Virus record (IMG/VR): IMGVR_UViG_3300027741_000029
Span: 1 to 64,000 of that record
DNA length: 64,000 bases
DNA from: a virus
Strand: one strand, 5' to 3'
The position numbers and the translations under genes are program-made. This document shows positions 24,091 to 42,395 of this stretch, in pieces. The stretch's first letter is position 1. Every line of letters starts with the position of its first letter. The notes below the pieces were generated by a model. That model ran no database searches and was not told the DNA's origin. It worked only from the letters and a program-made list of their open reading frames with translations.

Positions 24091-24957
24091 ATGAGTCATT
24101 ATCAAACACTTGGTGTAGCAGAAACGGCTAGCCCCGAAGAATTAAAAGCGGCATTTAGAAGCCTTGCTAAGCAACATCATCCTGATATGGGCGGTGATCA
24201 GGCAAAGTTTCAACAGATTAATGAAGCATATAGCACACTAAGTGATCCAAACTCTCGTGCACACTATGACCATACTTTAAGAAACCCACAACCACAATTT
24301 AATCACAATCCATATGCTCAAGCCCAACATCGTGAGTTTCACTTTAACTTTGGTGGCGGAGCGGACCCAATGTCTGCTTTCCATGAACAGTTCTTTAATC
24401 AATTTGGATTTAATGTTCGTCAACCTGCAAGAAATCGTAATATTCGTGTAAACATTGATTTAAATTTCTTAGAAACACTTAATCCACAAACAAAAGTTAT
24501 TGAATTTAGAACCGCAAATAGCATTGATACATTACAATTACAGATTCCTGCTGGTGTTGAAAATGGCAATGTATTCACGATTGCTGGTCGTGGTGATGAT
24601 TCAAATACTGCTATTCCCCGTGGTAACTTAGAAGTTCAAATTAATGTTCAGGGGCATAATCGTTTTTTCCGCAATGGAGAAAATATTATAGAAGATATTA
24701 CTATTGATTGTTTTCAGGCAATAATGGGATGCAATATACCTATCTCCTTACCAAGCGGCAAATCAATAGAACTTAACATTCCACGTGGAACACAGCATCA
24801 AAGTCAGTTCGGTATAACGGACGAAGGGTTTCCTAGACAGAACGGAACTCGTGGCAAGTATATTGCAAAGATTAGTGTTCTAATTCCATCTGCACTTACC
24901 GCACAACAACTTGATTTAATTACAGAAATACAAAAGATTAAACCAATAAACACTTGA
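24091..24957 (+). CDS. dnaJ: DnaJ/CbpA-type co-chaperone (no Zn finger)
   Basis: J domain with HPD; C-terminal IPAGVENG, GITDEGFP. Confidence 0.9.
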   Translation: MSHYQTLGVAETASPEELKAAFRSLAKQHHPDMGGDQAKFQQINEAYSTLSDPNSRAHYDHTLRNPQPQFNHNPYAQAQHREFHFNFGGGADPMSAFHEQFFNQFGFNVRQPARNRNIRVNIDLNFLETLNPQTKVIEFRTANSIDTLQLQIPAGVENGNVFTIAGRGDDSNTAIPRGNLEVQINVQGHNRFFRNGENIIEDITIDCFQAIMGCNIPISLPSGKSIELNIPRGTQHQSQFGITDEGFPRQNGTRGKYIAKISVLIPSALTAQQLDLITEIQKIKPINT

Positions 24958-24981
24958 CTTAAATAGAAAAGGTGCTATATT
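24954..24981 (+). promoter_or_regulatory. sigma70-type promoter, predicted leaderless mRNA
   Basis: TTGACT-N16(TG)-TATATT-N6-ATG. Confidence 0.7.
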
Positions 24982-24987
24982 AGTATT

Positions 24988-27222
24988 ATGACACAGTTTA
25001 ATAGCAATAACGACCTTGAAAAAATTGTTAAAGTAGCCAAGCAATTTGCTGCTGAAAACCAACATCAATACTTTACAGTAGAACATCTACTGTATTCTAT
25101 GCTGCATGAGAAAGGATTCATGCGTGTATTACAATCTACGGGCGTGGATGTAGAAAATCTTGTTAAAGAGTTAGAAGATTATATCTTTGACAATTATCCA
25201 CAAAGCAATTCAGACAGTGAACCAAAGAAAACCCAAAGTCTTGAGCGAGTCTTTAACCGTGCGTTTACGCAAGTAATTCTACTTGGTCGCCAAACTATTC
25301 ATATCAGTGATCTTTATCTTTCAATTACTAAAGAAGCACATAGTCACGCAGCATATTATCTTAAGAAATATGGAGTAGAACCTGAAAAGGTTATTACAGC
25401 ATATAATAAAGAAAAGGGTAAGAAATCAATTGGGCAAGCTGCCAATGCGCTTGAAGAACATTGCACTAACCTAAATGAAATGGTTCGCAATGGCAAAATT
25501 GAAGCAGTAATTGGTCGCACCACTGAACTTGCTGATATGACACAAATTCTTGCTCGTAAGAATAAGTGCAATGTGTTGCTTGTAGGTGATTCTGGCGTGG
25601 GTAAGACTGCTATTGCCGAAGGTCTTGCATATAACATTGTTAATGGTGATGTTCCAAAGTTCCTTAAAGACCATGAAGTCTATAGTCTAAACATTGGTTC
25701 ACTATTGGCTGGCACAAAGTATCGTGGTGACTTTGAAGAAAAGTTACAAGAGATTATTTCGGCAGCTACTGAACTTGGCAATATCATTTTGTTTATTGAC
25801 GAAGCACATCAGATGCGTGGTGCTGGCAGTGGCAGCAACAGTGCGGTAGATTTCTCTAATATGTTGAAGCCAGCACTTGCTCGTGGTGACTTTAAGGTTA
25901 TTGCATCCACTACTTGGGAAGAATATACTCAGCAGTTTGAAAAAGACCGTGCGCTTATGCGTCGTTTCAACCGTGTTGCTATTGATGAACCAAGCATTGC
26001 GGATTGTAAAACTATTCTTCTTGGCATTAAAGAAAGTTATGAAACCTTCCACAATGTTAAGATTACCGATGCTGCTATTAGTGAAGCAGTAGAATTGAGT
26101 GCTCGTTATCAGGCAGACAAGAAACTGCCAGATAAGGCTATTGACCTTATTGATAGTGCCGCAGCATTACGCCGCACCAAGGCACGTGGCTCACGCACTA
26201 TTGATGTTGCACAAATTCGTCGTGAACTTTCTCGTATCACTGGTATTCCAGAAGCACAGTTAGGTGCAGAGAACACACAAAAGATTATGCCTAATATTGG
26301 TGCCGAGATCAAGGCAGTTGTATATAACCAAGATACCGCAGTTGACAAGGTGTTAGACCGTGTATGGGTATCACAGGCTGGTCTAAAGGCTGATAATAAG
26401 CCTGTTGGTTCATTCCTGTTCCTTGGACCTACTGGCACAGGTAAAACAGAACTTGCAAAGCAATTAGCAGATCGTTTAAGCATGAAACTGCTGCGCTTTG
26501 ATATGAGTGAATATCAAGAGCGTCATTCTATCTCACGCCTTATCGGTGCGCCGCCTGGCTATGTTGGATATGAAGATGCTAACCTTGCTGGTGGCTTGCT
26601 CATCAGTGAGATCGCCAAGAACCCACACTGCATCATTCTCTTTGACGAGATTGAAAAGGCACATCCTGATGTTTCACAGGTGTTGCTGCAAGTAATGGAC
26701 GAAGGTTTCATCACTGGAACCAATGGCAAGCGAGCAGATTGTCGCCAAAGTATCCTTATTATGACCAGTAATTTGGGTGCTGCTGATAGCGAACGCAATG
26801 TTATTGGTTTTGGTGGCGGAACAAATGTAGACGCAGTTGATGCTGCTGTTAAAGAATACTTCCGTCCAGAGTTCCGCAATCGTGTTGATGCGATTGTTAC
26901 ATTCAACAAACTTGATACGGCTACTATTCGTAAGGTTGCAGAGAAGTTCATTCGTGAACTTAATGAACAACTTGCCCTAAAGAATACATCAGTATCACTT
27001 ACTGATTCTGCGTGGAATTGGTTATGCAAAACGGGTTATACTCCAAGTCTTGGTGCCAGACCAATGCATCGCACAATTCACGAACATATTAAAGTTCCGC
27101 TAGCAAAGAAAATACTGTTTGACAAGACAGAAAATCATGCTAGTATTAAGGTAGACCTAAATGTTGACAAGTTGGAATTGGTAGCGCAAGATGACCGAGA
27201 TAGCAGAACTAACGCTGATTGA
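24988..27222 (+). CDS. clpA: ClpA-type AAA+ unfoldase
   Basis: two Walker A motifs (GDSGVGKT, GPTGTGKT), IGAPPGYVG, IGF loop (VIGFG), no ClpB middle domain. Confidence 0.9.
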   Translation: MTQFNSNNDLEKIVKVAKQFAAENQHQYFTVEHLLYSMLHEKGFMRVLQSTGVDVENLVKELEDYIFDNYPQSNSDSEPKKTQSLERVFNRAFTQVILLGRQTIHISDLYLSITKEAHSHAAYYLKKYGVEPEKVITAYNKEKGKKSIGQAANALEEHCTNLNEMVRNGKIEAVIGRTTELADMTQILARKNKCNVLLVGDSGVGKTAIAEGLAYNIVNGDVPKFLKDHEVYSLNIGSLLAGTKYRGDFEEKLQEIISAATELGNIILFIDEAHQMRGAGSGSNSAVDFSNMLKPALARGDFKVIASTTWEEYTQQFEKDRALMRRFNRVAIDEPSIADCKTILLGIKESYETFHNVKITDAAISEAVELSARYQADKKLPDKAIDLIDSAAALRRTKARGSRTIDVAQIRRELSRITGIPEAQLGAENTQKIMPNIGAEIKAVVYNQDTAVDKVLDRVWVSQAGLKADNKPVGSFLFLGPTGTGKTELAKQLADRLSMKLLRFDMSEYQERHSISRLIGAPPGYVGYEDANLAGGLLISEIAKNPHCIILFDEIEKAHPDVSQVLLQVMDEGFITGTNGKRADCRQSILIMTSNLGAADSERNVIGFGGGTNVDAVDAAVKEYFRPEFRNRVDAIVTFNKLDTATIRKVAEKFIRELNEQLALKNTSVSLTDSAWNWLCKTGYTPSLGARPMHRTIHEHIKVPLAKKILFDKTENHASIKVDLNVDKLELVAQDDRDSRTNAD

Positions 27223-31366: not shown

Positions 31367-34300
31367 ATGACCTTAAGCCACCGCACCATCTTCAATGAAG
31401 CACCAAATCCTCATGTTGCATTTGCATTTGGGAGATTAAATCCTCCACATTATGGTCACGAAGGTGTAATCAATACTCTTGCTAGCGTGGCAAAGAAAGG
31501 CAGTTGGGCGTTATTTTTAAGTAAAAGCCAAGATGCAAAAAAGAATCCGCTTACATATGATCAAAAGTTAAAGTGGGTTAAAACTTTATATCCACAAGTG
31601 CAAGGTCATCTTGTTGAAGACCCTAGTATTAAAACATTTCTTCAAGCAGCAGTATATTTGTATAATAAAGGGTTTCGTTCGGCTACCTTTGTTGCTGGTG
31701 AAGATGATATGGCAAGTATGCGTCCAGTGTTGGAGAGATACAATGGCGTAGAAAGCAGTCACGGCATGTATAAGTTTGAACCATTTTCATTCATGGAAAG
31801 TCCACGTTTAACAAGTGCTACCAATGCTCGCAAAGCAGTTACAGATAATGATCCAGAAGCATTTGAACGTGCTACAAGAGTAAAGCCAAACATTATGGTA
31901 GATGGCAAGAACCTATTTCAAACTGTTCGCATTGGCATGGGTCTTGGTGAAAGTATGGAAGAAAGTGTTATTACCGAGAGTGTTATTGCCAAAAACCTAT
32001 CAGTAGAACAACTTGCACACATTAGCGATAAGGCGTTGGACGATGCATATCATTATGGGTTATCTACACCAGGTGCTAACTTTGGTTGGTTAGCAAATAT
32101 TGAAAGTGCAACCGCTGCCAAGCGTATGATTGATAGTGGTATTACCGATGTAGATGCAATTGCCAACGCTATCCACGATGGTTGGAACAAGACCGCAATG
32201 GCTGATTATATGGGCAAGTTGCAGTTAGATGCGCCTACAATTCCCGATAAGAAAAAGAAGCGTTATGCACTTGCCCAACAAACTTATGGTCAGTTGCCAG
32301 AAGTAGAAAAAGAAAAAGACCGTGTAGTTGCTCGTGCTATGTTGAAGGCAATGGGTATCGTTACCGAAGCGCCAGGTATTGGTGGCGATTGGGGCGATAA
32401 TCCTAAACTTGTAAAGCGTGGTAGAGCACCGTATAAACCAAACATAGACAATACCTATTATGGTTCTACGCACGGAGTTGATCTTGACCTATACGGTTTA
32501 CCAAAGTATGAATTAGACGAAGACCTAACACCAGACCAATGGGCAGAGTTGCGCATTGCTGATCCAAAAGCCTATATGGGCAATAAGGATTATACTAATC
32601 GTCGTTGGTGGACTCTACAGTTTAAGAAGGCTCGTGCTGCTGCTCGTGAGAAGGGTGCGCAACGCTTTGAGTTCCCACCAGGTTCCAAGAACAGTTATAT
32701 GGTTGCACCTGACTTGGCAAACGAAGATACTGATCAACCAGATAGCAGCAACAATTCTGTTCGTAATCAGTTGAATGCTTGGATGGATCAAGACCAAAAA
32801 ATTAAAAACCCAACACAGCGGTTGTCACTGCAGAATAAGGCTTGGCAATATATTACCAAAAATATGGATGCCATCCTTGCTGACAAAGGTGCGGATGGTA
32901 AGGGAAGTTATCCTGCGGCACCATATGCGGCTTGGTTGCTAGTTCAACATATGGATGCTTATCCACAAAATCAAAGCAAGTTTCTACAACAACTGGAACA
33001 GTCAGGACTTGATCCTGCACCCAATCCTGGCGAAAAAGGAAAGTTACAGTTCTTAAAAGACCGTGTAGCAGTCAATAATGAAATTATAAAATTATGGAAT
33101 GCTGACAAGAATGCTTATAAAGATAAGAATGGACAATTACTTACTAATCCAACAGTAGATGTTCGTGATCCATCAAAGTTTGATGATGCTGATGAAAGTA
33201 AGATTGAAACATCTCGTAATGCGGCATTAAAAAATGCAGTAGAGGCTGGCAATACGCTACTTGTTGCCGCAGTAAATGCTACTAACGCACAAACACAACC
33301 ATCATACCAACAAGAAAGTGTAAGCGAAGGCAAAGTAACACTTTATACTGATCCAGATTATTTTGGTGCAGAAGTAGATGATAGTGGCTTTGATGCATTA
33401 CCGATCATCAATATTCCTACAAACAAACTTGTTGGGTTTGAACCCGATGATAAGATGAAATTACCAAAAGCCCAAGCAAATGTTGCGAAAATTATAGATG
33501 GTCTAGAGAAGAATGAAAATATACCACCTATTTTAGTTCGAAAATATAAGAGTGGTTATCAAGTATTAGATGGACATCATAGATTCTGGGCTTATAAAAC
33601 ACTTAAAAAAGATAGTATACCTGCACGATTAGTTCCTGATAGTGATATTGAAGAAATTAGCAAAAACAAAGTCAATGAAGCAGCAGATGGAACGCAACCT
33701 GAATATCTATGGCATGGTTCAAGAAATAAAATTCCTGTATTAAGCCCAAGACAAGCAGTTGATACTGGTGGTGCAACAGGTAGTAATAAAAATGCTATCT
33801 ATGCTACTGATAATAAAAATTTTGCTATTTTAATGGGTATGACAGAACCTAATAGTGATGTTGCTACTTTTCACACACCTGGCGAACCAATCCAAGGAGT
33901 TTTGTTTAGTGGTAAAATAAGACATGGGCAAAGTATGTATTTGCATATGTTGCCAACAAAAGATGCAGAAGGTAAAGATATTTTTATGCGTGGTTCTGCC
34001 GATGGCGAATATTATAGCAGACCAGATATTGAAGAATTAAAACCTTTAAAAATTATTGTTGTTCCAGTAGATGAACATTTGAATTTAATCAGAAAACCTA
34101 CAAAGAAAGATTTAGAATTACGACAATATTATCTTAATAGAGCAAACCAAAAACAAGAAAGCGTAAGCGAAGCCGCAGAAAAATCAACCAAAGCCGAGGC
34201 AAAGTATCAGGCAATGCCTCGCAATGGTCAACGCTGTGATCATTGCACTATGTGGCGACCACCACACGGTTGTTCGGCTGTTAGTGGCAAGATTGCGGCA

Positions 34301-37300
34301 AATGGTTGGTGTTCATATTATAAGCGCAGTCATCGTAAAGATTTAGAAGAAGACAGTGATAAAAGTGAAATCTTCAAATCATTAATTAAAAAATATCAAC
34401 TTGCTGGCAAAAGTGATGAAGAAGCACGAGACGCTGCTATAATTGATTTTGATAAAAGATTTGGTTGGCATAGAACGCTTACACCAGACCAATTAAAATC
34501 ATTAACGGGTGTAAAAAAATTAGAACTTGATGAGGCAGCATCACCAGTGTTGTTCCACTATACAGGTAGTTTGGGTGCAGCACTAAACATTCTTAAGAAC
34601 AATCAGTTTATGTTGAGCATTTCTACTGGTTCGGTAGAAGATCAGTATGCACCAAAAGGTTATGAGTATTTCCTATCTACAACACGCAGTAAGGCAGGCG
34701 GATATCATCAAATAGTTGGCGACACTGGCGTTATGTTTAACCTTGATGGCAATTGGTTTAATCGTCGTTATCCTGTGAAGGCAATTGATTATTGGGCAGG
34801 AATGTATAGAGGAGACCGTCATAGCGAAAGCGAAGACCGTGTATTCTCTCGTGAGCCATCTATGTCAGCAGATGCTATTACTGCTATTCATATCTTGTTA
34901 AAAGAAAAGGGTGAATATGCTAGTCCAAATACTCGTCAGTTGATGATTCTTGCCAAGAAGCGTGGCTTGCCAACCTATCTTTATAGTGATGAAAATGCTT
35001 GGAGATTACAAAATACTAAGCAAGCAGTACCAGTAAGTGGTGCTCAAGATTTACTGCGTGGTCAGAAGAAAACAGGTTATATCAGCAGCAGTAATTTTGG
35101 CAAGCGAATGTTAAGACCATGGTTAGAACTGATATTCAAGAAAAACCGCAGTGAGTTATCAAAGAAGGCAAATGAACTTCGCTATGGTTTAACATACTGG
35201 AACGGTGGTCAGTTTAGTGATGATCTTGGACTGCGTAATGAAATTTCAAATGCTCGTAAACCTGGTAGTAGTGGTTATCCAGAGGCTACTAAAATTATCG
35301 CAGCAATGCGCAAAATTGGTGCCAATAATGTAAAAGATTTACTAACATTCTTGCACAAGAAGTGGGATGCAGAAGCACAACAACCACTTAAAAGCGACAA
35401 TGATGCACAACGAGCAATTGCTAAAATCCGTGCCGATAGTGCTAAAAAAGAAAGTGTTGAAGAAGCACTTGATCCAAATGAAACACATGGTTGGATTTTG
35501 CCTAACCGCAAAGTTGTTTATGTTGAGAAGGAAGAACATCTGTCGTGGCTTTATAGTAATGACATTGATGGATATGAAGAAGCATTTACCCAAGGATATG
35601 TTCGTTTTGTAAATCTTCCCAATACATTTTTTCTAGAAGGAACATCAAGTGGTCTTAAAAAATTATACAGAGTATATGCAGCATCTGCACTATCAAGACC
35701 AAATATTGCCGTAGATGTTTATTATGGCAATAGAGGAAATGCAACTTCAAGTTATGATTTTACCATGCCACAAGAAAAAACAAAGTTTATGCGCTTACTT
35801 GGACCAAGTTCTGTTGGCGAACACGCTGGCAGCATTATTGGCACAGTAGGCGGCGGTAATGATTATCCTGACCGTCAGGTAGCCACTTTTCCATGGGACC
35901 GTTGGATACAGCCAGATACTGGCAACAGTAAATTAGCGTATGTTGATGACCTTGATGAAGTAAACATGAGTCCATCGGCTCTATCAAAGTTTGCTGCTAC
36001 TCCACAAGCACAGGCAATGACTATTGGTTTTGAAGCAGAAATGCTGGTGCCAGGTTTGGATTACGAAGATGAAGATGCAGACTATGGTGGTGTAAGCCGT
36101 GTGCAGTATGAGTTTCGCAGAGACCCAAGCAATTGGGATTTGAGTAAGGACGCTCCATTTCCAACTGAAAAAGATTGGGCTATACAAGTAGCAGCATGGG
36201 CAAGTAAAAGCGATATGCTTGATTCTGAGGATGTTGGCAATATTCGTGTTGAACTTCGTGATATAAACAAAAATTTTATCGCATATGTGGAAAAGAATAA
36301 AGATGTATCAACTGAAATAGTTAAACCAGAAAATTTAAAATGGATTGCTAATTACATTGACAAGAATACTGCGTGGATGTTAACTAAAAAAGAAATAAAA
36401 CAAGCAATCATAGATAACCCAAATGATTCCGATAGATATAGTGTTGTTTGGGACGCTCGCACAATCTTTATTGAAAAGATGCTAGAAGATTCAACACCAC
36501 AAGAATATGAAGAGTTATGGAAGGCTTATCTTAAAAGATATAATATTAAAAACATAAGTGATTGGTTTATGAGATGGGGACAACCACAAAATGATTATGT
36601 ATTTTACCCATACCTAAAAGGAACCCCACCACAAGACTCTACTGCGATAACCGTAAAAGAACTTGCCGTTAGTTGGAAGGCAGTGATTGGAGCAAATGTA
36701 AAGTATGGCGGTGGATATCATGGCATAAAGCGTGATGGCACTAGTTGGATTCTTGAGCCTGATAGCAGTATTAGTGGTGATGATAACGGTATTGAACTTA
36801 TATCACCGCCTATGCCGCTACAACAAGGCATGGCGGCACTTGATAAGTTCTTCCAATGGGCAGGTCAAAACGGATATTATGGCAATGAATCAACTGGATT
36901 CCATGTTGGTGTTAGCCTACCAGAAGAACTACAATCAAAAATTGACCCACTTAAAGTAGTAATGTTGCTTGGTGATCAATATGTGTTAGACCTATTTGAT
37001 CGTGGCAGCAATGAATATACCAAGAGCAGTCTTGGTGCAGTTCAAAAACTATTTAAATCACGCAGTAGTAATGTGCGACCAGAAGATTATGCTAAATTAT
37101 TGCGTAAAGATTTAGCAAGAACAGCACAAGCAATTGTCAATCGCACGATGAATGGCGGCAACAAGTATGTATCCGTTTATCTTAAATCTAATTATATTGA
37201 GTTCCGCAGTGCTGGCGGAAACTTTATGGAACACATAGACGATATCAAGAATACTGTGCTGCGTTATGTTCAGGTAATGGCAATTGCTGCTGATCCACAA

Positions 37301-37714
37301 GCATATCGTGAAGAATATGCCAAGAAACTTTATAAAGTGATTGCTAAAAATATTCCACGAGATGATGACCAACTGTCAAACTTTGCTATGTATGCCAGTG
37401 GTTTAATTGACCAAAATGTGTTGAAGATGCGTTTACAGAAGCGTCAGACCGATAAGGCAGATGCAGCAGCAAGAGCAGCATTTGTTGCTAGCACAAAGAT
37501 TTATAGAGTATGGCTTGGCGACCCACCATATGGTTCTAATCTCTCTGACCCAAAACGCTTTGCTACGCCAAGTGAAGCATATGCTTGGGCAAAATCTTAT
37601 GCAGTTCGTCTTTCAAGCACCTTTGATGCTAAAAGTTTATACTTAGAGCCAGATGATCATAGCATACCACCAATCGTGCTTGACCAACCTGCTTCTGGTC
37701 CATGGCTACAATAA
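31367..37714 (+). CDS. 2115-aa multidomain polyprotein: HIGH nucleotidyltransferase, RyR-like, DUF6624-like, ParB-like, ART-like x2, HiPIP, amidoligase
   Basis: motifs FGRLNPPHYGH, YGQLPEVEKEKDR, AWLLVQH, DGHHR, LWHGS, CxxC...GWC, LFHYT/STTRS/ESE, GFEAE...EPDSS...ELISPP. Confidence 0.85.
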   Translation: MTLSHRTIFNEAPNPHVAFAFGRLNPPHYGHEGVINTLASVAKKGSWALFLSKSQDAKKNPLTYDQKLKWVKTLYPQVQGHLVEDPSIKTFLQAAVYLYNKGFRSATFVAGEDDMASMRPVLERYNGVESSHGMYKFEPFSFMESPRLTSATNARKAVTDNDPEAFERATRVKPNIMVDGKNLFQTVRIGMGLGESMEESVITESVIAKNLSVEQLAHISDKALDDAYHYGLSTPGANFGWLANIESATAAKRMIDSGITDVDAIANAIHDGWNKTAMADYMGKLQLDAPTIPDKKKKRYALAQQTYGQLPEVEKEKDRVVARAMLKAMGIVTEAPGIGGDWGDNPKLVKRGRAPYKPNIDNTYYGSTHGVDLDLYGLPKYELDEDLTPDQWAELRIADPKAYMGNKDYTNRRWWTLQFKKARAAAREKGAQRFEFPPGSKNSYMVAPDLANEDTDQPDSSNNSVRNQLNAWMDQDQKIKNPTQRLSLQNKAWQYITKNMDAILADKGADGKGSYPAAPYAAWLLVQHMDAYPQNQSKFLQQLEQSGLDPAPNPGEKGKLQFLKDRVAVNNEIIKLWNADKNAYKDKNGQLLTNPTVDVRDPSKFDDADESKIETSRNAALKNAVEAGNTLLVAAVNATNAQTQPSYQQESVSEGKVTLYTDPDYFGAEVDDSGFDALPIINIPTNKLVGFEPDDKMKLPKAQANVAKIIDGLEKNENIPPILVRKYKSGYQVLDGHHRFWAYKTLKKDSIPARLVPDSDIEEISKNKVNEAADGTQPEYLWHGSRNKIPVLSPRQAVDTGGATGSNKNAIYATDNKNFAILMGMTEPNSDVATFHTPGEPIQGVLFSGKIRHGQSMYLHMLPTKDAEGKDIFMRGSADGEYYSRPDIEELKPLKIIVVPVDEHLNLIRKPTKKDLELRQYYLNRANQKQESVSEAAEKSTKAEAKYQAMPRNGQRCDHCTMWRPPHGCSAVSGKIAANGWCSYYKRSHRKDLEEDSDKSEIFKSLIKKYQLAGKSDEEARDAAIIDFDKRFGWHRTLTPDQLKSLTGVKKLELDEAASPVLFHYTGSLGAALNILKNNQFMLSISTGSVEDQYAPKGYEYFLSTTRSKAGGYHQIVGDTGVMFNLDGNWFNRRYPVKAIDYWAGMYRGDRHSESEDRVFSREPSMSADAITAIHILLKEKGEYASPNTRQLMILAKKRGLPTYLYSDENAWRLQNTKQAVPVSGAQDLLRGQKKTGYISSSNFGKRMLRPWLELIFKKNRSELSKKANELRYGLTYWNGGQFSDDLGLRNEISNARKPGSSGYPEATKIIAAMRKIGANNVKDLLTFLHKKWDAEAQQPLKSDNDAQRAIAKIRADSAKKESVEEALDPNETHGWILPNRKVVYVEKEEHLSWLYSNDIDGYEEAFTQGYVRFVNLPNTFFLEGTSSGLKKLYRVYAASALSRPNIAVDVYYGNRGNATSSYDFTMPQEKTKFMRLLGPSSVGEHAGSIIGTVGGGNDYPDRQVATFPWDRWIQPDTGNSKLAYVDDLDEVNMSPSALSKFAATPQAQAMTIGFEAEMLVPGLDYEDEDADYGGVSRVQYEFRRDPSNWDLSKDAPFPTEKDWAIQVAAWASKSDMLDSEDVGNIRVELRDINKNFIAYVEKNKDVSTEIVKPENLKWIANYIDKNTAWMLTKKEIKQAIIDNPNDSDRYSVVWDARTIFIEKMLEDSTPQEYEELWKAYLKRYNIKNISDWFMRWGQPQNDYVFYPYLKGTPPQDSTAITVKELAVSWKAVIGANVKYGGGYHGIKRDGTSWILEPDSSISGDDNGIELISPPMPLQQGMAALDKFFQWAGQNGYYGNESTGFHVGVSLPEELQSKIDPLKVVMLLGDQYVLDLFDRGSNEYTKSSLGAVQKLFKSRSSNVRPEDYAKLLRKDLARTAQAIVNRTMNGGNKYVSVYLKSNYIEFRSAGGNFMEHIDDIKNTVLRYVQVMAIAADPQAYREEYAKKLYKVIAKNIPRDDDQLSNFAMYASGLIDQNVLKMRLQKRQTDKADAAARAAFVASTKIYRVWLGDPPYGSNLSDPKRFATPSEAYAWAKSYAVRLSSTFDAKSLYLEPDDHSIPPIVLDQPASGPWLQ

Positions 37715-37730
37715 ACAGGTAAATATATAA

Positions 37731-40700
37731 ATGAAAAACAACAAAGACCTGATCCTTGAAGAAATCCTAAACGAAGTAAACATGAGTCCAGCAGCCCTTC
37801 GTGCGGCGGTGGCAAAGATTCCAAATGCAAAAGCAGGTTTAGAGTTTGAACTTATCGTCACTAATCTTGACGAAGAAGATGATGAAGATTATGATCCATA
37901 TGAGGATTTTGAATCCGAACCAGATTATGACCAAGATGAGCGTGTTTCTACCGCAAGTTTTGGTGCATTGTCGCAAGATGTTATGCAGTTCTTCGCTGGC
38001 GATCACAATAGTCGTCGTGAAGTAAATCGTGCGATTGATTTAATCCGTGAAGCATGGTATGAGTATTTGGATGGACCACTATGGGACACATGGGCAGGCG
38101 ACCGCATACAAGACTTTATTGACAAGCGTTATGGTCGTGATTATAAAAACCAGCAAGAACTGTTCAGTGAAATAGACAGAATTGATCCATATGAAGCGTT
38201 TAGAAAAGAATATTTTGAAGAATGGCGTGATAATATTGAAGATGATGATAATATTGACAGTTATCTTGAACAATTTTTAGAAGATACCTATGGTAACACT
38301 GCTATGAGTGGTTTGGCAAATGATAGCAGTCTTGGTCTATCTTGGCCAAACTGGACTGAACCTGATTATGATTACCGTCCAACTCGTTCTACGGTTGATG
38401 TAGGTGATTTCCGCCGTGCAACAGGTATAAGAACTATCAAGAGCGGCTCTTATCACGGCATTGCAAAGCCAAACGATGCATATGTTATTGAACCAGATAG
38501 CAGCCTATCACCTACTCGTGGCAAAGGCGGCGAAGGTTTAGAGTTTGTATCACCACCGCTAGATATTCCAACAATGATTGACCAAATCAATAAGGTCAAG
38601 GCGTGGGCAAAAGATGGCAATGCTTATACCAATGATAAAACTGGTTTGCATATGAATATTAGTATACCAGGTTATAAGTTAGACAAACTTGATTATGTTA
38701 AACTTGCACTATTTTTAGGTGACAAGTATATTTTAGAAAAGTTTGGTCGTCTTGGCAATTCTTATGCTCGCAGTGCTTTTGACCAGATTGCTTCATTCAT
38801 TAAACAAAATCCAGGCAAGGCAGACCAAGCCGTAGATGCTATGCGTAAGAACTTGAATACGGTTGCATCCAAACTTATTCATAATGGTTATACTGATAAA
38901 TTCACCTCTATCAATACAAAAGATAACCGTGTAGAGTTTCGTTCACCAGGCGGTAATTGGATTGATATGGATACTGATGAAGTAGTGAATACGCTGCTTC
39001 GTGTTGTATATGCTATGAACATTGCTCTGCATCCAGAAATGGAACGCAAAGAATATCAAAAGAAATTTGCAAAACTACTTACTGCTGATAAAAAAGACGA
39101 AACCGATACTATCAAGTATTTTACACAGTTTGCTACTGGAAATATGCCTCGCACAGCACTTGTAAGTTATATTAAAAATGCACAAAGCAAGCGTGATTTT
39201 GCCAAGAAAGCAAAAGCACCGCAACCAAATGTTGTTGGTGGTGACGATGATGATACACCGTATGTAGATTACGATGGGATTGGTGGTATTACATTTCAGA
39301 TTATCAGTCGTATAACTGGCAACCCATGGCAATCATTTGTAGTATCTCCAAGAATGACTTACAGTGATGTATATGATATTGCCACACGCATAGTGCGAGC
39401 AAGTGGTCGTTCATTTGACCTAGTAGCGTTAAGAGATACTCGTGATCGTGATGGTCAAGCAGATGATATTCTAACACGCCAACCATTATCAATTGGCGGT
39501 GATCGAACTGTATCATCTATTCAACCTATGTATGTTATCCGCACATCAAACAATCAAATGGCGGTTACACAGTTTCGTGCGCCAGATAATGAGCAAGCAC
39601 GAGACATTGCTACTCGTTTAACAAGAGAATATGGCTATCGTGATATTGATTGGTTCTTGTCCCTTGCAAACGATGATACGAATACACCAATACCTGGTGC
39701 AGGTACACAGGCACTACAATTGCCCCAAGCAGCAGCGCAACCACCTCGCCAATATTCACAAATAGAAATTGATCGTGGTTATGATATTGCGGGCAATGCT
39801 ATTCCAGCAAATGCAACCGCCACATCTTCTAACATTACTGCTACAAATGGCACAACATATAATATTTTGGATAGTGAAAGTCGTGTTGTTCATACATTTA
39901 ACGCTGCAAGTGTAACTGGTGCTCGTCGTTATGCTGTAAGTTATGCCGAGGAACATAATTTGGCAGCACCTTGGCAATTGGCAGAAGTTCCAAATAGAGA
40001 CGAAAGCCTTGAAGAAAGTATCCTAAACGAAATCAATATGAGTCCTACATCTCTTGAAAAGTTTGCCGATACACCATTTGCCAAGAGTATGAAGGTTGGT
40101 TTTGAAACCGAAATGTATATTCCTGGGCTTGGCGGTGAAGAAGGCGAAGAGGAAGAAGAAGAGGATATGGATGCAAACGAAGAGTTTCCAAGCAGCGCAT
40201 CCTATCGTGATCGTCAGCGTGATGTTATGAACTTCTTTACTGGTGGTAGTGATATCAATACCCGCAGTGATGTTGAAAGTGCATTAGAATCGTTCTATGA
40301 AGCATTTAGTGAATACCAATATGAAACCTATGATAATGAATTTGAAGGCACTGATGATTACAATGACGCAGTTCAAGAAGAATTAGGCGATACTCCTGCG
40401 GACGAAGCAAGTGAGCGAGAACTTGATGATGCCAAAGATAATGTTCGCACCAATTGGATGGAAGAAAACGAAGAATATACTTGGGGCAGATTCATAAGTC
40501 GCAATAGCATTGATGATATGTATGACTTTATGCGTTGGGTAAATCGCAATACTCGTGAATCGCTATCTTGGCCATATTATACATTTAGCAGCAGTAGAGA
40601 AGAACCAACAACAGACATTGGCGATGTTGTAGATGATTTTAGACGCAATACTGGTTATAAGGCACGAGCAAGCGGCGGTTATCACGGAGCAACTCGTGAT

Positions 40701-42395
40701 GAAACAACTTGGATATTTGAACCAGATAGTTCGCTAGATAGTCCAAATGATGATGGCGATGGCGGTATTGAACTTGTATCACCTCCAATGAACCTAGAAG
40801 ATGCGCTGGCTGCGTTAGAGAATGTATTCAGTTGGGCAAAAAGCAATGATTATTATACTAACCGCACAACTGGTTTCCATATTGGTGTTAGTATCCCTAA
40901 CCAAACCTTAGAAAACATTGACCATCTTAAATTGATTATGTTGCTTGGCGATGAGTATGTGCTTAAAGCATTTGGTCGTGCTGGTTCTCGTTGGACAAAG
41001 AGTAGTTTTGACCAAGCAAAGCGTGAAGTGCGTGGCAGAAGTGGCAGAAAGAATGTGCCAGCAATCCTTGATAAGATGCGTGGTGGATTGGAAGATATTG
41101 CCAAAAAAGAAATCAATAAACTGTTGGTTCCTCGTGGCGACCGTTATGTTAGCGTGAATATTAAGCCAAACTATATTGAGTTCCGCAGTGCTGGTGGCAA
41201 TTACTTTGAGCAATATGAAGAAATTCGCAAGACTATGTTGCGCTATGTTCGTGTTATGGGAGCAGCCGCTGATACCGAAGATGCTCGTCAAGAATATCAA
41301 AAGAAACTGTATAAGTTTGTAAGCGGTGGCATTAGTGAAAAAGATAACACGATGCAACTGTTTGCCAAATATACTGCTGGCGCTATTGACAAAGAACAAC
41401 TTGTAAAAGAATTACGCACTGCTCAAGAGCGTCGTAAGCCTGTTGCACCACTTGGCAGTGGTCCAGTTGATGGTTTCTTGGAAAATGAAGACGGCGAGCA
41501 AGTTGTAAAAATCAAGGGAACTAACCCATATGAAATGATTGAACTTGGTGTAAAGTTTGCTAACACTCGCCAAATGCCATTGAGCGATGTCAACCTACGT
41601 TATCCTGGTTATAGTATGGTTCGTGTTCAATATTATACTACACATAACACTGAAACAGATAGTATAACACTGGTTTATATACCTGGCGTTGATTTATACA
41701 GTGCATACAGCAGTGAAATAACAAAGATGGCTGTTCCTGTTGCAGAAAAGCACTGGGGCGTAAGTAAATTACCAATAGAACGTTATGCTGTGCGAGTGTT
41801 AGATGAGTATTCACTACAATATATGCGTGATGAAATGTATTTTATTACATCTCGTGGTATAGACCGTGCACCATCACTGCCACCAACAGCACAATCAACA
41901 GATGCTGCGCCTGGCAATAATCAAACTGCTCAACGATATATTTTAAAATATACAGATAACGGCGAAGAAGTTTATAGATTTGGTGCGTCTACTCAACGAG
42001 ATGCAATAGACCGTGCCAATAGTTTCCAACGATCATATAGCAGTGTAATGCGCTGGGGCGGCACAATTGGTAATATTCGTGGTATTGCGCTATATTCAAT
42101 TGCGCCAAATACTGATGAACAAGAATTGTTCTATATGGGACCAGGCGAGGCTATTGTAAATCAACCTGCTTCTGGAACGCCAGATTGGGCAGATGATCCT
42201 AACATTGCTGTAACCAATAATACACCTAGAATTAGAAATCCTGGTGGCAGTGGCACGTATGCATTGTATAGTGGCGATGGTGAGCAGTTAACGGATGCAG
42301 CAGCATTCAATAACTATCAAAATGCGACAAGTTATTTTACAATTAATTATAGTAGTTCGTTGGGAACTGGTTGGACCGTAAGACAACTATCGTAA
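37731..42395 (+). CDS. 1554-aa protein with two amidoligase (COOH-NH2 ligase type 2-like) domains
   Basis: GLEFE/GFETE, EPDSS, E(F/L)VSPP, TGxH, EFRSxGG, each present twice. Confidence 0.85.
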   Translation: MKNNKDLILEEILNEVNMSPAALRAAVAKIPNAKAGLEFELIVTNLDEEDDEDYDPYEDFESEPDYDQDERVSTASFGALSQDVMQFFAGDHNSRREVNRAIDLIREAWYEYLDGPLWDTWAGDRIQDFIDKRYGRDYKNQQELFSEIDRIDPYEAFRKEYFEEWRDNIEDDDNIDSYLEQFLEDTYGNTAMSGLANDSSLGLSWPNWTEPDYDYRPTRSTVDVGDFRRATGIRTIKSGSYHGIAKPNDAYVIEPDSSLSPTRGKGGEGLEFVSPPLDIPTMIDQINKVKAWAKDGNAYTNDKTGLHMNISIPGYKLDKLDYVKLALFLGDKYILEKFGRLGNSYARSAFDQIASFIKQNPGKADQAVDAMRKNLNTVASKLIHNGYTDKFTSINTKDNRVEFRSPGGNWIDMDTDEVVNTLLRVVYAMNIALHPEMERKEYQKKFAKLLTADKKDETDTIKYFTQFATGNMPRTALVSYIKNAQSKRDFAKKAKAPQPNVVGGDDDDTPYVDYDGIGGITFQIISRITGNPWQSFVVSPRMTYSDVYDIATRIVRASGRSFDLVALRDTRDRDGQADDILTRQPLSIGGDRTVSSIQPMYVIRTSNNQMAVTQFRAPDNEQARDIATRLTREYGYRDIDWFLSLANDDTNTPIPGAGTQALQLPQAAAQPPRQYSQIEIDRGYDIAGNAIPANATATSSNITATNGTTYNILDSESRVVHTFNAASVTGARRYAVSYAEEHNLAAPWQLAEVPNRDESLEESILNEINMSPTSLEKFADTPFAKSMKVGFETEMYIPGLGGEEGEEEEEEDMDANEEFPSSASYRDRQRDVMNFFTGGSDINTRSDVESALESFYEAFSEYQYETYDNEFEGTDDYNDAVQEELGDTPADEASERELDDAKDNVRTNWMEENEEYTWGRFISRNSIDDMYDFMRWVNRNTRESLSWPYYTFSSSREEPTTDIGDVVDDFRRNTGYKARASGGYHGATRDETTWIFEPDSSLDSPNDDGDGGIELVSPPMNLEDALAALENVFSWAKSNDYYTNRTTGFHIGVSIPNQTLENIDHLKLIMLLGDEYVLKAFGRAGSRWTKSSFDQAKREVRGRSGRKNVPAILDKMRGGLEDIAKKEINKLLVPRGDRYVSVNIKPNYIEFRSAGGNYFEQYEEIRKTMLRYVRVMGAAADTEDARQEYQKKLYKFVSGGISEKDNTMQLFAKYTAGAIDKEQLVKELRTAQERRKPVAPLGSGPVDGFLENEDGEQVVKIKGTNPYEMIELGVKFANTRQMPLSDVNLRYPGYSMVRVQYYTTHNTETDSITLVYIPGVDLYSAYSSEITKMAVPVAEKHWGVSKLPIERYAVRVLDEYSLQYMRDEMYFITSRGIDRAPSLPPTAQSTDAAPGNNQTAQRYILKYTDNGEEVYRFGASTQRDAIDRANSFQRSYSSVMRWGGTIGNIRGIALYSIAPNTDEQELFYMGPGEAIVNQPASGTPDWADDPNIAVTNNTPRIRNPGGSGTYALYSGDGEQLTDAAAFNNYQNATSYFTINYSSSLGTGWTVRQLS

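Follow-up and report, generated by a model that had tools for sequence, protein, structure and literature searches.

Three diverged amidoligase domains in two giant proteins of an uncultured jumbo phage: candidate head-packaged ligases

Why would a phage encode three amidoligase domains within two giant, adjacent proteins, and where would such ligases act? The question is raised by a 64,000-nucleotide stretch of DNA (hereafter the window; positions 1 to 64,000 of the IMG/VR record IMGVR_UViG_3300027741_000029), whose source is an uncultured jumbo myophage belonging to the Rak2/Atu_ph07 group of T4-related phages. The amidoligase gene cluster is flanked by a ClpA-like protease and a J-domain protein on one side and by a DNA polymerase on the other; that is, replication and chaperone genes, not head genes, adjoin it in the window, and neither a prohead protease gene nor a portal gene was found within these 64 kb. 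Below we describe the domains, the evidence that they may be packaged, and the alternatives.

Results

Layout of the two proteins

The features of the two ORFs, P0001 and P0002, are as follows, with the basis of each call in parentheses.

31367..37714, plus strand: ORF P0001, 2115 aa, built of several modules, the last enzyme among them being copy A (ORF list, translation)
35957..37396, plus strand: amidoligase copy A, P0001 residues 1531-2010 (family profile, 409 bits)
36041..36691, plus strand: copy A insert, 217 aa, mildly acidic (D+E 17.5%)
37484..37660, plus strand: single beta-beta-alpha-beta tail repeat behind copy A (aligns with the other tail repeats)
37731..42395, plus strand: ORF P0002, 1554 aa (ORF list, family and repeat profiles)
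37731..37775, plus strand: N-terminal leader of P0002, 15 aa with L-N-E at its end (candidate capsid-targeting propeptide)
37773..39140, plus strand: amidoligase copy B, P0002 residues 15-470 (family profile, 394 bits)
37851..38426, plus strand: copy B insert, 192 aa, helical and acidic (D+E 26.6%)
39276..39986, plus strand: three tail repeats after copy B, each about 50 aa long, singly at 39276-39437, 39504-39674 and 39837-39986 (iterated repeat profile with E values of 1e-10 to 1e-13)
40029..41375, plus strand: amidoligase copy C, P0002 residues 767-1215 (family profile, 506 bits)
40113..40655, plus strand: copy C insert, 181 aa, helical and acidic (D+E 28.2%)
41376..42392, plus strand: C-terminal tail of P0002, comprising two tail repeats at 41916-42071 and 42237-42392 (repeat profile) and an unassigned stretch of about 180 aa

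The modules recognized in P0001 by Pfam and PHROG are cytidylyltransferase-like, RyR (weak), ParB_N, HiPIP-like (weak) and Amidoligase_2. P0002 runs from its leader through copy B, three tail repeats and copy C to a tail with two repeats, and orthologues with the same two-copy layout are 72-97% identical to copy C. The middle repeat of copy B is modeled as a beta-beta-alpha-beta unit (pLDDT 90.3). The repeat behind copy A was among the six seeds chosen by hand for the initial repeat profile and no longer matches the iterated one. The C-terminal tail of P0002 is without a match in Pfam, PHROG and the ESM Atlas.

A phage-specific branch of Amidoligase_2

Amidoligase_2, a family of glutamine-synthetase-like COOH-NH2 ligases, is credited by citations in PMC11318856 and PMC7824862 to Iyer, Abhiman, Burroughs and Aravind (2009). 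The Pfam model (PF12224; gathering cut-off 22 bits) matches P0002 in two stretches, copies B and C, with 44.6 bits (E 2.2e-11), and P0001 in copy A with 20.7 bits, slightly below the cut-off; the PHROG "amidoligase" profile matches too. Copy A scores 409 bits against a subfamily profile that also includes B and C, and because the family-profile scores of A, B and C are as high as those given above, their resemblance reflects homology and not chance. An AlphaFold2 model of copy C (pLDDT 89.4) points to the same superfamily: the best 19 rows of the VIA search are all glutamine-synthetase-superfamily ligases, led by glutamine synthetases (Z 12.0, rmsd 3.5-4.1 over 190-202 residues) and including YbdK (Z 9.0), Dop (8.5), PafA (7.6) and GCL (within 7.5-9). 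Foldseek likewise places glutamine synthetases best (probability 0.97-0.99), and the best matches in a viral structure library are named amidoligase, an Atu_ph07 protein among them. The family and the glutamine-synthetase-like fold, both proposed from the sequence beforehand, are thus confirmed by HMM search and by structure search with the copy C model.

These domains form a large phage-specific branch of Amidoligase_2, comprising 3118 clusters at 50% identity, nearly all from uncultured phages. The domain either stands alone or forms one module of a giant protein that combines several enzymes, and a phage can have up to three copies. Its fusion partners in relatives include NT5C, GNAT, dCMP deaminase, DUF5661, DUF6934 and GGACT, the last being a GGACT/AIG2 gamma-glutamyl cyclotransferase in the relatives P0063, P0076 and P0159.

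Ligases of the glutamine-synthetase fold use ATP to turn a carboxylate into an acyl-phosphate, which is then joined to an amine, and PafA demonstrates that this fold can join a Glu carboxylate to protein lysines. PafA/Dop, glutamine synthetase, GshA and gamma-glutamylmethylamide synthetase share with our three copies the fold and, presumably, the acyl-phosphate chemistry. The likeness of copy C to glutamine synthetases, PafA and Dop lies at the level of the fold only (Z 7.6-12, 9-16% identity); the N-terminal beta-grasp domain of glutamine synthetase is missing from the copies, and no Pup-like partner was identified.

Closer at hand are phi32_84 and phi32_86 of phage phiEco32, which are likewise phage-borne members of Amidoligase_2 with the glutamine-synthetase fold and the residue series ExE...E...E...H...R...ExR. 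The insert between the first two catalytic strands, however, measures about 190 aa in our subfamily and about 15 residues in phiEco32; phi32_84 aligns HVH where the subfamily has G, S or N (a weak alignment, E 0.014); and tail repeats, an (L/I/V)-x-E leader and giant fusions are features of the subfamily and not of phiEco32. The branch is set apart from canonical phage amidoligases by its helical insert, which opens with an acid loop right behind the first catalytic strand, by its lost second His and by its one to several tail repeats. The phiEco32 operon pairs its amidoligase with a gamma-glutamyl cyclotransferase (GGCT), a pairing echoed in the GGACT fusions among relatives of A, B and C; we counted this recurrence for gamma-glutamyl-type chemistry. 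The operon partners of phiEco32 (GGCT, an amidotransferase and an ATP-grasp protein), in contrast, did not turn up in the 20 ORFs around the cluster that were scanned with PHROGs.

Catalytic residues of the three copies

P0001 and P0002 together hold three instances of the motif E(V/I)NMSP and no more, with Glu codons at 35957, 37773 and 40029. This bears out the sequence-only reading of three homologous domains opening with the motif, except that the reading had begun each domain at the residue after the Glu. The other shared motifs that it listed fared similarly: GxExE, EPDSS, ExxSPP, TGxH and EFRSxGG are found in all three copies, whereas Y/FxSxN holds only in B, as FTSIN, and in C, as YVSVN; copy A reads YVSVY. 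The Asn of this last motif is present in 110 of 115 aligned subfamily sequences, and Tyr occupies its column in copy A alone.

Across the same 115 sequences, A, B and C among them, ExE, E231, D233, E248, R317, ExR and the G/S motifs are invariant, and H284 is kept in all but one. The residues predicted to handle metal, ATP and acyl-phosphate (ExE, two acidic strands, His, Arg and ExR) are present in each copy, and copy A keeps every family-invariant residue, Tyr replacing only the near-invariant Asn. The conserved set probably corresponds to glutamine-synthetase sites E129/E131, E212, E220, H269, R339 and E357/R359. As far as sequence can tell, A, B and C are diverged paralogues with the catalytic residue set intact, and the earlier description of triplicated, diverged ligase domains stands.

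The usual HxH is replaced by HxG in A and C and by HxN (HMN) in B, as had also been noticed before. In the column of the second His, 84 of the 115 sequences have G, 20 have S and 11 have N, and H is never found; HxG/HxN thus characterizes the subfamily throughout and is not decay. We counted the missing second His, together with the non-head gene neighborhood, against the main reading that is set out in the Discussion.

The acidic helical insert

An Asp/Glu-rich insert of roughly 200 aa had been ascribed to all three copies; it is clearly acidic in B and C but only mildly so in A, as compared with a D+E content of 12-14% in the cores. The copy A insert shares 11-20% identity with those of B and C, and the copy B insert fits the family consensus EPDYDxDER...FFxGD. 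The copy C model places the insert helices at residues 59-174 (pLDDT above 90), while the acid run right behind strand 1 is modeled less confidently (pLDDT 72-80). We also considered the insert as a loose acidic linker, which the confident helical bundle of this model ruled out. Identity among orthologues is 87-98% in the cores versus 49-85% in the inserts and 45-88% in the tails, so that insert and tail, previously proposed as the variable parts, are indeed the fast-evolving ones.

Candidate cleavage sites ahead of each domain

Nearly every domain start in the family carries Glu just before the domain (P1) and L/I/V at P3, each in 393 of 394 starts. These comprise a first set of 265, in which each of the two residues is found in 264, and 129 from representatives clustered at 50% identity, all of which have both. 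In stand-alone forms the motif Glu lies at residues 8-25, leaving a leader of 8-25 aa that is variable in sequence. The junction of copy A reads L-D-E (Glu1531) and then VNMSP, and that of copy C reads L-N-E (Glu767) and then INMSP; six residues upstream of the latter lies SLEE, another candidate site. Unrelated neighboring ORFs, too, begin with short leaders that have x-E at their end; an N-terminal [LIV]-x-E is found in 9 of 15 ORFs of the cluster versus 17 of 53 elsewhere in the window, a weak enrichment (p = 0.07). The residues past the Glu are highly conserved as well (M in 259 of 265 starts, with S and P dominant) and form part of the fold in the copy C model (pLDDT 93). The conserved L-x-E-(V/I)-x-M-S-P could thus be part of the domain's own structure at its N-terminus.

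In T4, processing of the 10-aa capsid-targeting sequence is governed by its residues 8 and 10, and T4-type propeptides are 10-20 aa long (PMC9026906, PMC5694885); the cleavage sites have few determinants other than P3 and P1 (PMC9026906). The gp21 prohead protease removes this sequence from the T4 internal proteins IPI-III and from Alt, which resemble our subfamily in their propeptide: it is short and N-terminal, aliphatic at P3, and has Glu as its P1 residue. They differ in that the T4 cargo is an ADP-ribosyltransferase or small basic proteins and not a predicted ATP-dependent ligase, and in that the subfamily has further candidate sites inside the 1554-aa and 2115-aa chains, where modules join. 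Because the motif ahead of each copy resembles the T4 head-protease site, the copies are probably loaded into the head and cut free.

Packaging in relatives

Like T4, relatives of the window phage encode a gp21-type protease: Peptidase_S77 occurs in six of nine related records, among them a 78%-identical relative and the two records whose completeness reaches 98% or more. Presence in the virion is likewise common to the T4 cargo and to the stand-alone homologue of Atu_ph07, gp196 (AUZ94978.1), for which the published virion proteome lists 14 peptides (30% coverage), a peptide count near that of the portal protein (PMC6102473 supplement). The gp196 gene lies two genes away from the portal gene. 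The Atu_ph07 virions were purified by PEG only and the proteome list includes a topoisomerase subunit (PMC6102473), so some of its entries may be contaminants. The proposal that the ligases are packaged thus gains from gp196, from the (L/I/V)-x-E leader and from the gp21-type proteases of relatives, all of which bear indirectly on the window phage, and we regard packaging and cleavage there as plausible.

Discussion

We lean towards the reading that the two giant proteins are packaged, cut after Glu, and then active as ligases in the next host, their handling being inferred from motif conservation, the T4 precedent and the proteomics of one homologue. P0001 and P0002 would enter the prohead via a leader or linker resembling the T4 capsid-targeting sequence. 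A gp21-like prohead protease would then cut after (Leu/Ile/Val)-x-Glu, yielding separate ligases, each with its own tail, that would stay in the mature head.

A filled head holds no ATP, so any activity must fall before packaging or after ejection. The former would suit ligases that act in the producing cell or prohead on phage parts (head or internal proteins, polyamines, nucleotide pools) and are packaged incidentally or as acidic internal head proteins, a scenario that we consider unlikely. It would accord with fusion partners that are mostly nucleotide-acting (NT5C, dCMP deaminase, cytidylyltransferase-like, ParB_N) and with the replication and chaperone genes next to the cluster, and the acid run of the insert could repel DNA or balance charge. 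The strict conservation of the catalytic set, however, favors an enzymatic over a purely structural role, the rapid evolution of insert and tail suits a conflict interface better than housekeeping, and in T4 the proteins with a capsid-targeting sequence, namely Alt and the internal proteins, pass into the host on ejection (PMC9026906).

The same chains invite comparison with polyvalent proteins, which also string unrelated enzyme modules (ParB-like, nucleotidyltransferase, GNAT) together in a giant chain, are predicted to accompany the DNA, and have modules that recombine freely between elements (PMC5512222). P0001 indeed combines several unrelated modules in one chain, shuffled among relatives; an amidoligase or glutamine-synthetase-like module is nowhere mentioned in the main text of Iyer et al. 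2017 (PMC5512222). The polyvalent model assigns processing to an in-chain zincin peptidase (PMC5512222), whereas we propose a head protease, and a whole-protein Pfam scan of P0001 and P0002 found no zincin. Conceivably the chains stay uncut as intact multi-domain polyvalent proteins, with (L/I/V)-x-E-(V/I)-x-M-S-P as a structural N-terminal cap, as the conserved and confidently modeled residues past the Glu would suggest when set against the sparse determinants of T4 sites; the N4 virion RNA polymerase, itself a polyvalent protein, is packaged unprocessed (PMC5512222). We find this rather improbable, given that stand-alone homologues nearly always have 8-25 extra, variable residues before the motif, that unrelated neighboring ORFs begin with similar leaders, and that related records encode gp21-type proteases.

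Least probable by our estimate, and very unlikely, are ordinary cytoplasmic metabolic enzymes outside the virion, as in the phiEco32 operon (whose predicted product is a peptide-like metabolite or a surface modification), which would fit the shared Pfam family, the common association with gamma-glutamyl cyclotransferase and the location among non-structural genes, but not the gp196 peptides in Atu_ph07 virions or the lack of amidotransferase, ATP-grasp and GGCT genes in the 20 ORFs scanned, and which would leave the universal leader unexplained.

If the two proteins are instead packaged and cut, as we favor, the freed ligases would exit with the DNA into the ATP-containing cytoplasm of the next host, where the sequence-only reading had conjectured that peptide ligases modify several targets at injection. 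There they may form gamma-glutamyl-type or isopeptide amide bonds onto cationic amines or proteins, and the acid loop by the active site, along with the fast-evolving insert and tail, may shape the choice of substrate.

Three Predicted Amidoligase Domains in Two Neighboring Proteins

Sequence comparison and structural prediction together show three intact amidoligase domains of predicted glutamine-synthetase fold in two multi-module proteins, P0001 and P0002, whose ORFs are separated by 16 nt. Copy A is the last enzyme module of P0001, and copies B and C are found in P0002.

Features of the amidoligase region and its surroundings
24091-27222: J-domain protein and ClpA-like ATP-dependent protease, upstream of the amidoligase ORFs (PHROG 4871, E 2.6e-246)
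31367-37714, plus strand: P0001, ORF of 2115 aa
34178-34321: four-cysteine stretch within multi-module P0001 (residues 938-985), scoring 21.5 bits against Pfam HiPIP, just below the 22-bit cut-off
36986-36988: tyrosine of copy A in a near-invariant asparagine column (P0001 residue 1938)
37484-37660: tail repeat of P0001
37731-42395, plus strand: P0002, ORF of 1554 aa
39276-39986 and 41916-42392: tail repeats of P0002
42435-42974: separate gene for NT5C, a 5'(3')-deoxyribonucleotidase, next after P0002
49581-50672: radical SAM protein gene at the downstream cluster edge (PHROG 14086, E 1.7e-16)

The motif E(V/I)NMSP, with which each copy had been said to open, occurs exactly three times (Glu codons at 35957, 37773, and 40029), and GxExE, EPDSS, ExxSPP, TGxH, and EFRSxGG are common to all three copies. 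Y/FxSxN, also listed as shared, holds for B and C but not for A, which has YVSVY and is the sole sequence of 115 aligned with Tyr where 110 have Asn. This Tyr is the only departure from the conserved set among the three copies. The acidic insert described in all three is strong in B (26.6% Asp plus Glu) and C (28.2%) but only mild in A (17.5%), compared with 12-14% in the amidoligase cores. HxG or HxN does replace the usual HxH, as a trait of the whole subfamily rather than of these copies (the column holds G in 84, S in 20, N in 11, and H in none of the 115 sequences); in a weak but consistent alignment, the HVH of phi32_84, the canonical phage amidoligase of phiEco32, falls on the HIG of the subfamily.

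The assignment to Amidoligase_2 (PF12224) is borne out by the Pfam HMM, which matches P0002 in two stretches at E 2.2e-11 and P0001 just below the cut-off, while PHROG matches comprise 'amidoligase enzyme' and one unnamed family. Against a profile built from the family, A, B, and C score 409, 394, and 506 bits. Eleven residues are invariant in the 115 aligned sequences (G24, E26, E28, E231, D233, E248, G282, S288, R317, E384, and R386) and H284 is kept in 114; copies A, B, and C retain all of them. From general knowledge rather than from coordinates, we take this set to parallel the metal, ATP, and acyl-phosphate residues of glutamine synthetase.

The proposed glutamine-synthetase-like fold likewise stands. 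An AlphaFold2 model of copy C, with the 115-sequence alignment as input, has a mean pLDDT of 89.4, and in a VIA-align structure comparison that used no sequence input it is matched best by glutamine synthetases (Z 12.0, with an rmsd of 3.5-4.1 across 190-202 residues); next in rank come gamma-glutamylmethylamide synthetase, YbdK, glutamate-cysteine ligases, Dop, and PafA; rows 1-19 all belong to the same superfamily as glutamine synthetase. Foldseek concurs (probability 0.97-0.99). Searched by sequence against solved structures, the family profile gave spurious helical matches in the insert only.

Helical Insert and Tail Repeats

The insert, which the sequence-only reading took for an acidic stretch, is instead a predicted folded domain in the model of copy C. 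Strand 1 (residues 22-31) leads into an acid run at pLDDT 72-80, followed by helices at residues 59-174, with pLDDT above 90, ahead of the next catalytic strands. The insert has its own conserved motif, with the consensus EPDYDxDER...FFxGD. In phi32_84, by contrast, GxExE lies about 15 residues ahead of the next acidic strand, where the subfamily has the helical insert; possession of the insert thus sets these proteins apart as a separate branch within the amidoligase family. Sequence comparison assigns A, B, and C to this large, phage-specific, insert-bearing branch of Amidoligase_2. As a speculation, the acid loop emerging from a catalytic strand might point to cationic substrates.

Repeats about 50 aa long trail each ligase; P0002 has five of them and P0001 has one. 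An iterated repeat profile matches 159 of the 243 proteins then collected, and a single repeat is modeled as a beta-beta-alpha-beta unit (pLDDT 90.3). The tails have no match in Pfam, PHROG, or ESM Atlas, and the best structural match of the repeat model, at Z 5.7, gives no assignable relative. The small phage inhibitors AcrIF9, Dmd, and T7 Gp2 scored Z 3.6-4.6, which is noise for a 50-residue unit of this topology.

Distribution, Fusions, and Copy Number

Word-indexed searches returned 295 clusters in the size range of stand-alone proteins, plus 547 proteins of greater length, and an exhaustive profile search returned 3118 clusters at 50% identity, 1595 of them with E below 1e-30. Almost all are from uncultured phages. 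In IMG/VR the subfamily is present at 330 loci, many of them on 150-340 kb contigs, and a 90%-identical orthologue sits on a 348-kb metagenome contig. In cultured phages, tblastn with P0002 gave matches in Atu_ph07 (two records) and RsoM2USA alone, and each of these two phages has one stand-alone gene.

Fusion partners in the longer proteins are cytidylyltransferase-like, DUF5661, ParB_N, GNAT, DUF6934, NT5C, dCMP deaminase, and GGACT/AIG2 domains. The last, a gamma-glutamyl cyclotransferase, is fused directly ahead of the ligase in three relatives (P0063, P0076, and P0159, the latter with two ligase copies); these fusions hint at gamma-glutamyl-type products, as does the phiEco32 operon, where the two activities are likewise paired. 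Of the first 243 proteins, 35 have two ligase copies per chain, and one representative (P0244, 2938 aa) has three, so that the triplet is also possible within one chain. The copy number in related records is one, two, or three, so the triplication represents one form of a variable array rather than a singular event.

Among orthologues of P0002, the cores are 87-98% identical, with identity down to 49-85% in inserts and 45-88% in tails; between paralogues, the values are 32-47% for cores and 11-36% for inserts. The core is conserved while the insert and tail change fast, a contrast that gives a lead on where specificity may be encoded.

Genomic Setting

The window is densely coding on one strand and encodes a T4-type DNA polymerase, a clamp loader, baseplate-like proteins, and a ClpA-like protease. 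At 45-49% identity, the polymerase resembles its counterparts in Sinorhizobium phage Phosso, Agrobacterium phage Atu_ph07, and the Rak2/GAP32 group; this kinship and the T4-type gene content therefore indicate an uncultured T4-related jumbo myophage as the source. The region had no megablast match among 50,697 phage records.

A J-domain protein and a ClpA-like protease are neighbors of the amidoligase in 17-20 IMG/VR loci of distant relationship as well. The NT5C module forms part of amidoligase-bearing giant proteins of other phages; as it is a separate gene here, gene borders are fluid in the amidoligase cluster. Matches to the T4 late-promoter consensus TATAAATA are fewer than expected, 2 in 64 kb versus about 7 from shuffles, and one of the 2 lies 2 nt ahead of a start codon; these counts give no evidence of late transcription.

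Predicted Head Targeting and Virion Evidence

That the three ligases are head cargo with a T4-type targeting and cleavage motif is well supported, by indirect evidence. The residue before the domain start (P1) is Glu in 264 of 265 starts, and the residue two upstream of it (P3) is Leu, Ile, or Val, likewise in 264 of 265; the 129 starts from representatives of the 50%-identity clusters all show both residues. As P3 lies outside the domain profile, the alignment does not impose its conservation. The residue that follows the Glu is V1532 in P0001, V16 and I768 in P0002, and residue 14 in gp196 of Atu_ph07. In stand-alone proteins the Glu is found at residues 8-25 behind a variable amphipathic leader, which ends in LTE in Atu_ph07 and LSE in RsoM2USA. 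These leaders resemble the capsid-targeting propeptides of T4, in which Asp at the place of the Glu blocks processing. The T4 propeptides are 10-20 aa long and cut at Glu: the first 10 residues of IPIII are enough to direct a protein to the capsid, processing by the prohead protease gp21 depends on residues 8 and 10, and gp21-family proteases all cleave after Glu (PMC9026906; PMC5694885).

A protease of this type (Peptidase_S77) is encoded in six of nine related records, among them the two near-complete genomes and a relative with 78% identity. Within the 64-kb window, tblastn with the prohead protease, portal, gp195, gp197, and gp191 of Atu_ph07 gave no match. Several unrelated ORFs of the window between 30193 and 51030 start with short leaders in which x-E is followed by a small residue (e.g., 30193, 31367, 46336, 47258, 48740, and 50677). 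By a crude count, [LIV]-x-E near N-termini is only weakly enriched in the surrounding cluster compared with other parts of the window (p = 0.07).

The Atu_ph07 homologue (AUZ94978.1) is encoded two genes from the portal gene (gp198), and we assigned it as gp196 from gene order, gene lengths, and its mass of 57.9 kDa. In the published proteome of Atu_ph07 virions, gp196 is represented by 14 unique peptides (30.2% coverage) and the portal protein by 20 (43%; PMC6102473 supplement), with the caveat that the virions were purified by PEG and that a topoisomerase subunit is on the protein list too. The published proteomics of RsoM2USA covers ten major bands only and is uninformative for its homologue, ORF26.

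Implications

The proteins would be cleaved at their Glu sites and ejected, and the ligases would then form amide bonds onto host amines or proteins. Among the enzymes that phages are known to inject from their heads are ADP-ribosyltransferases, RNA polymerases, and nucleases; we know of no activity or substrate for any member of the present subfamily, despite its many clusters. The paper on polyvalent proteins (Iyer et al. 2017, PMC5512222) makes no mention of an amidoligase or glutamine-synthetase-like module, a jumbo-phage survey names amidoligases in its reference list only, and a full-text literature search for amidoligase combined with virion or jumbo turned up no account of the arrangement.

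A broader scenario, which we consider rather doubtful, is that these are the first virion-delivered ATP-dependent amide ligases, a widespread head cargo of jumbo phages that the prohead protease frees from giant precursors. They might place covalent tags on host proteins or cationic metabolites during the first minutes of infection, much as PafA tags proteins in pupylation, with the hypervariable insert and the beta-beta-alpha-beta repeats as interchangeable target-recognition parts and the arrays of two or three ligases reflecting an arms race with host defenses. If true, an ATP-dependent carboxylate-amine ligase would be a new chemistry for host takeover and a new class of virion enzyme.
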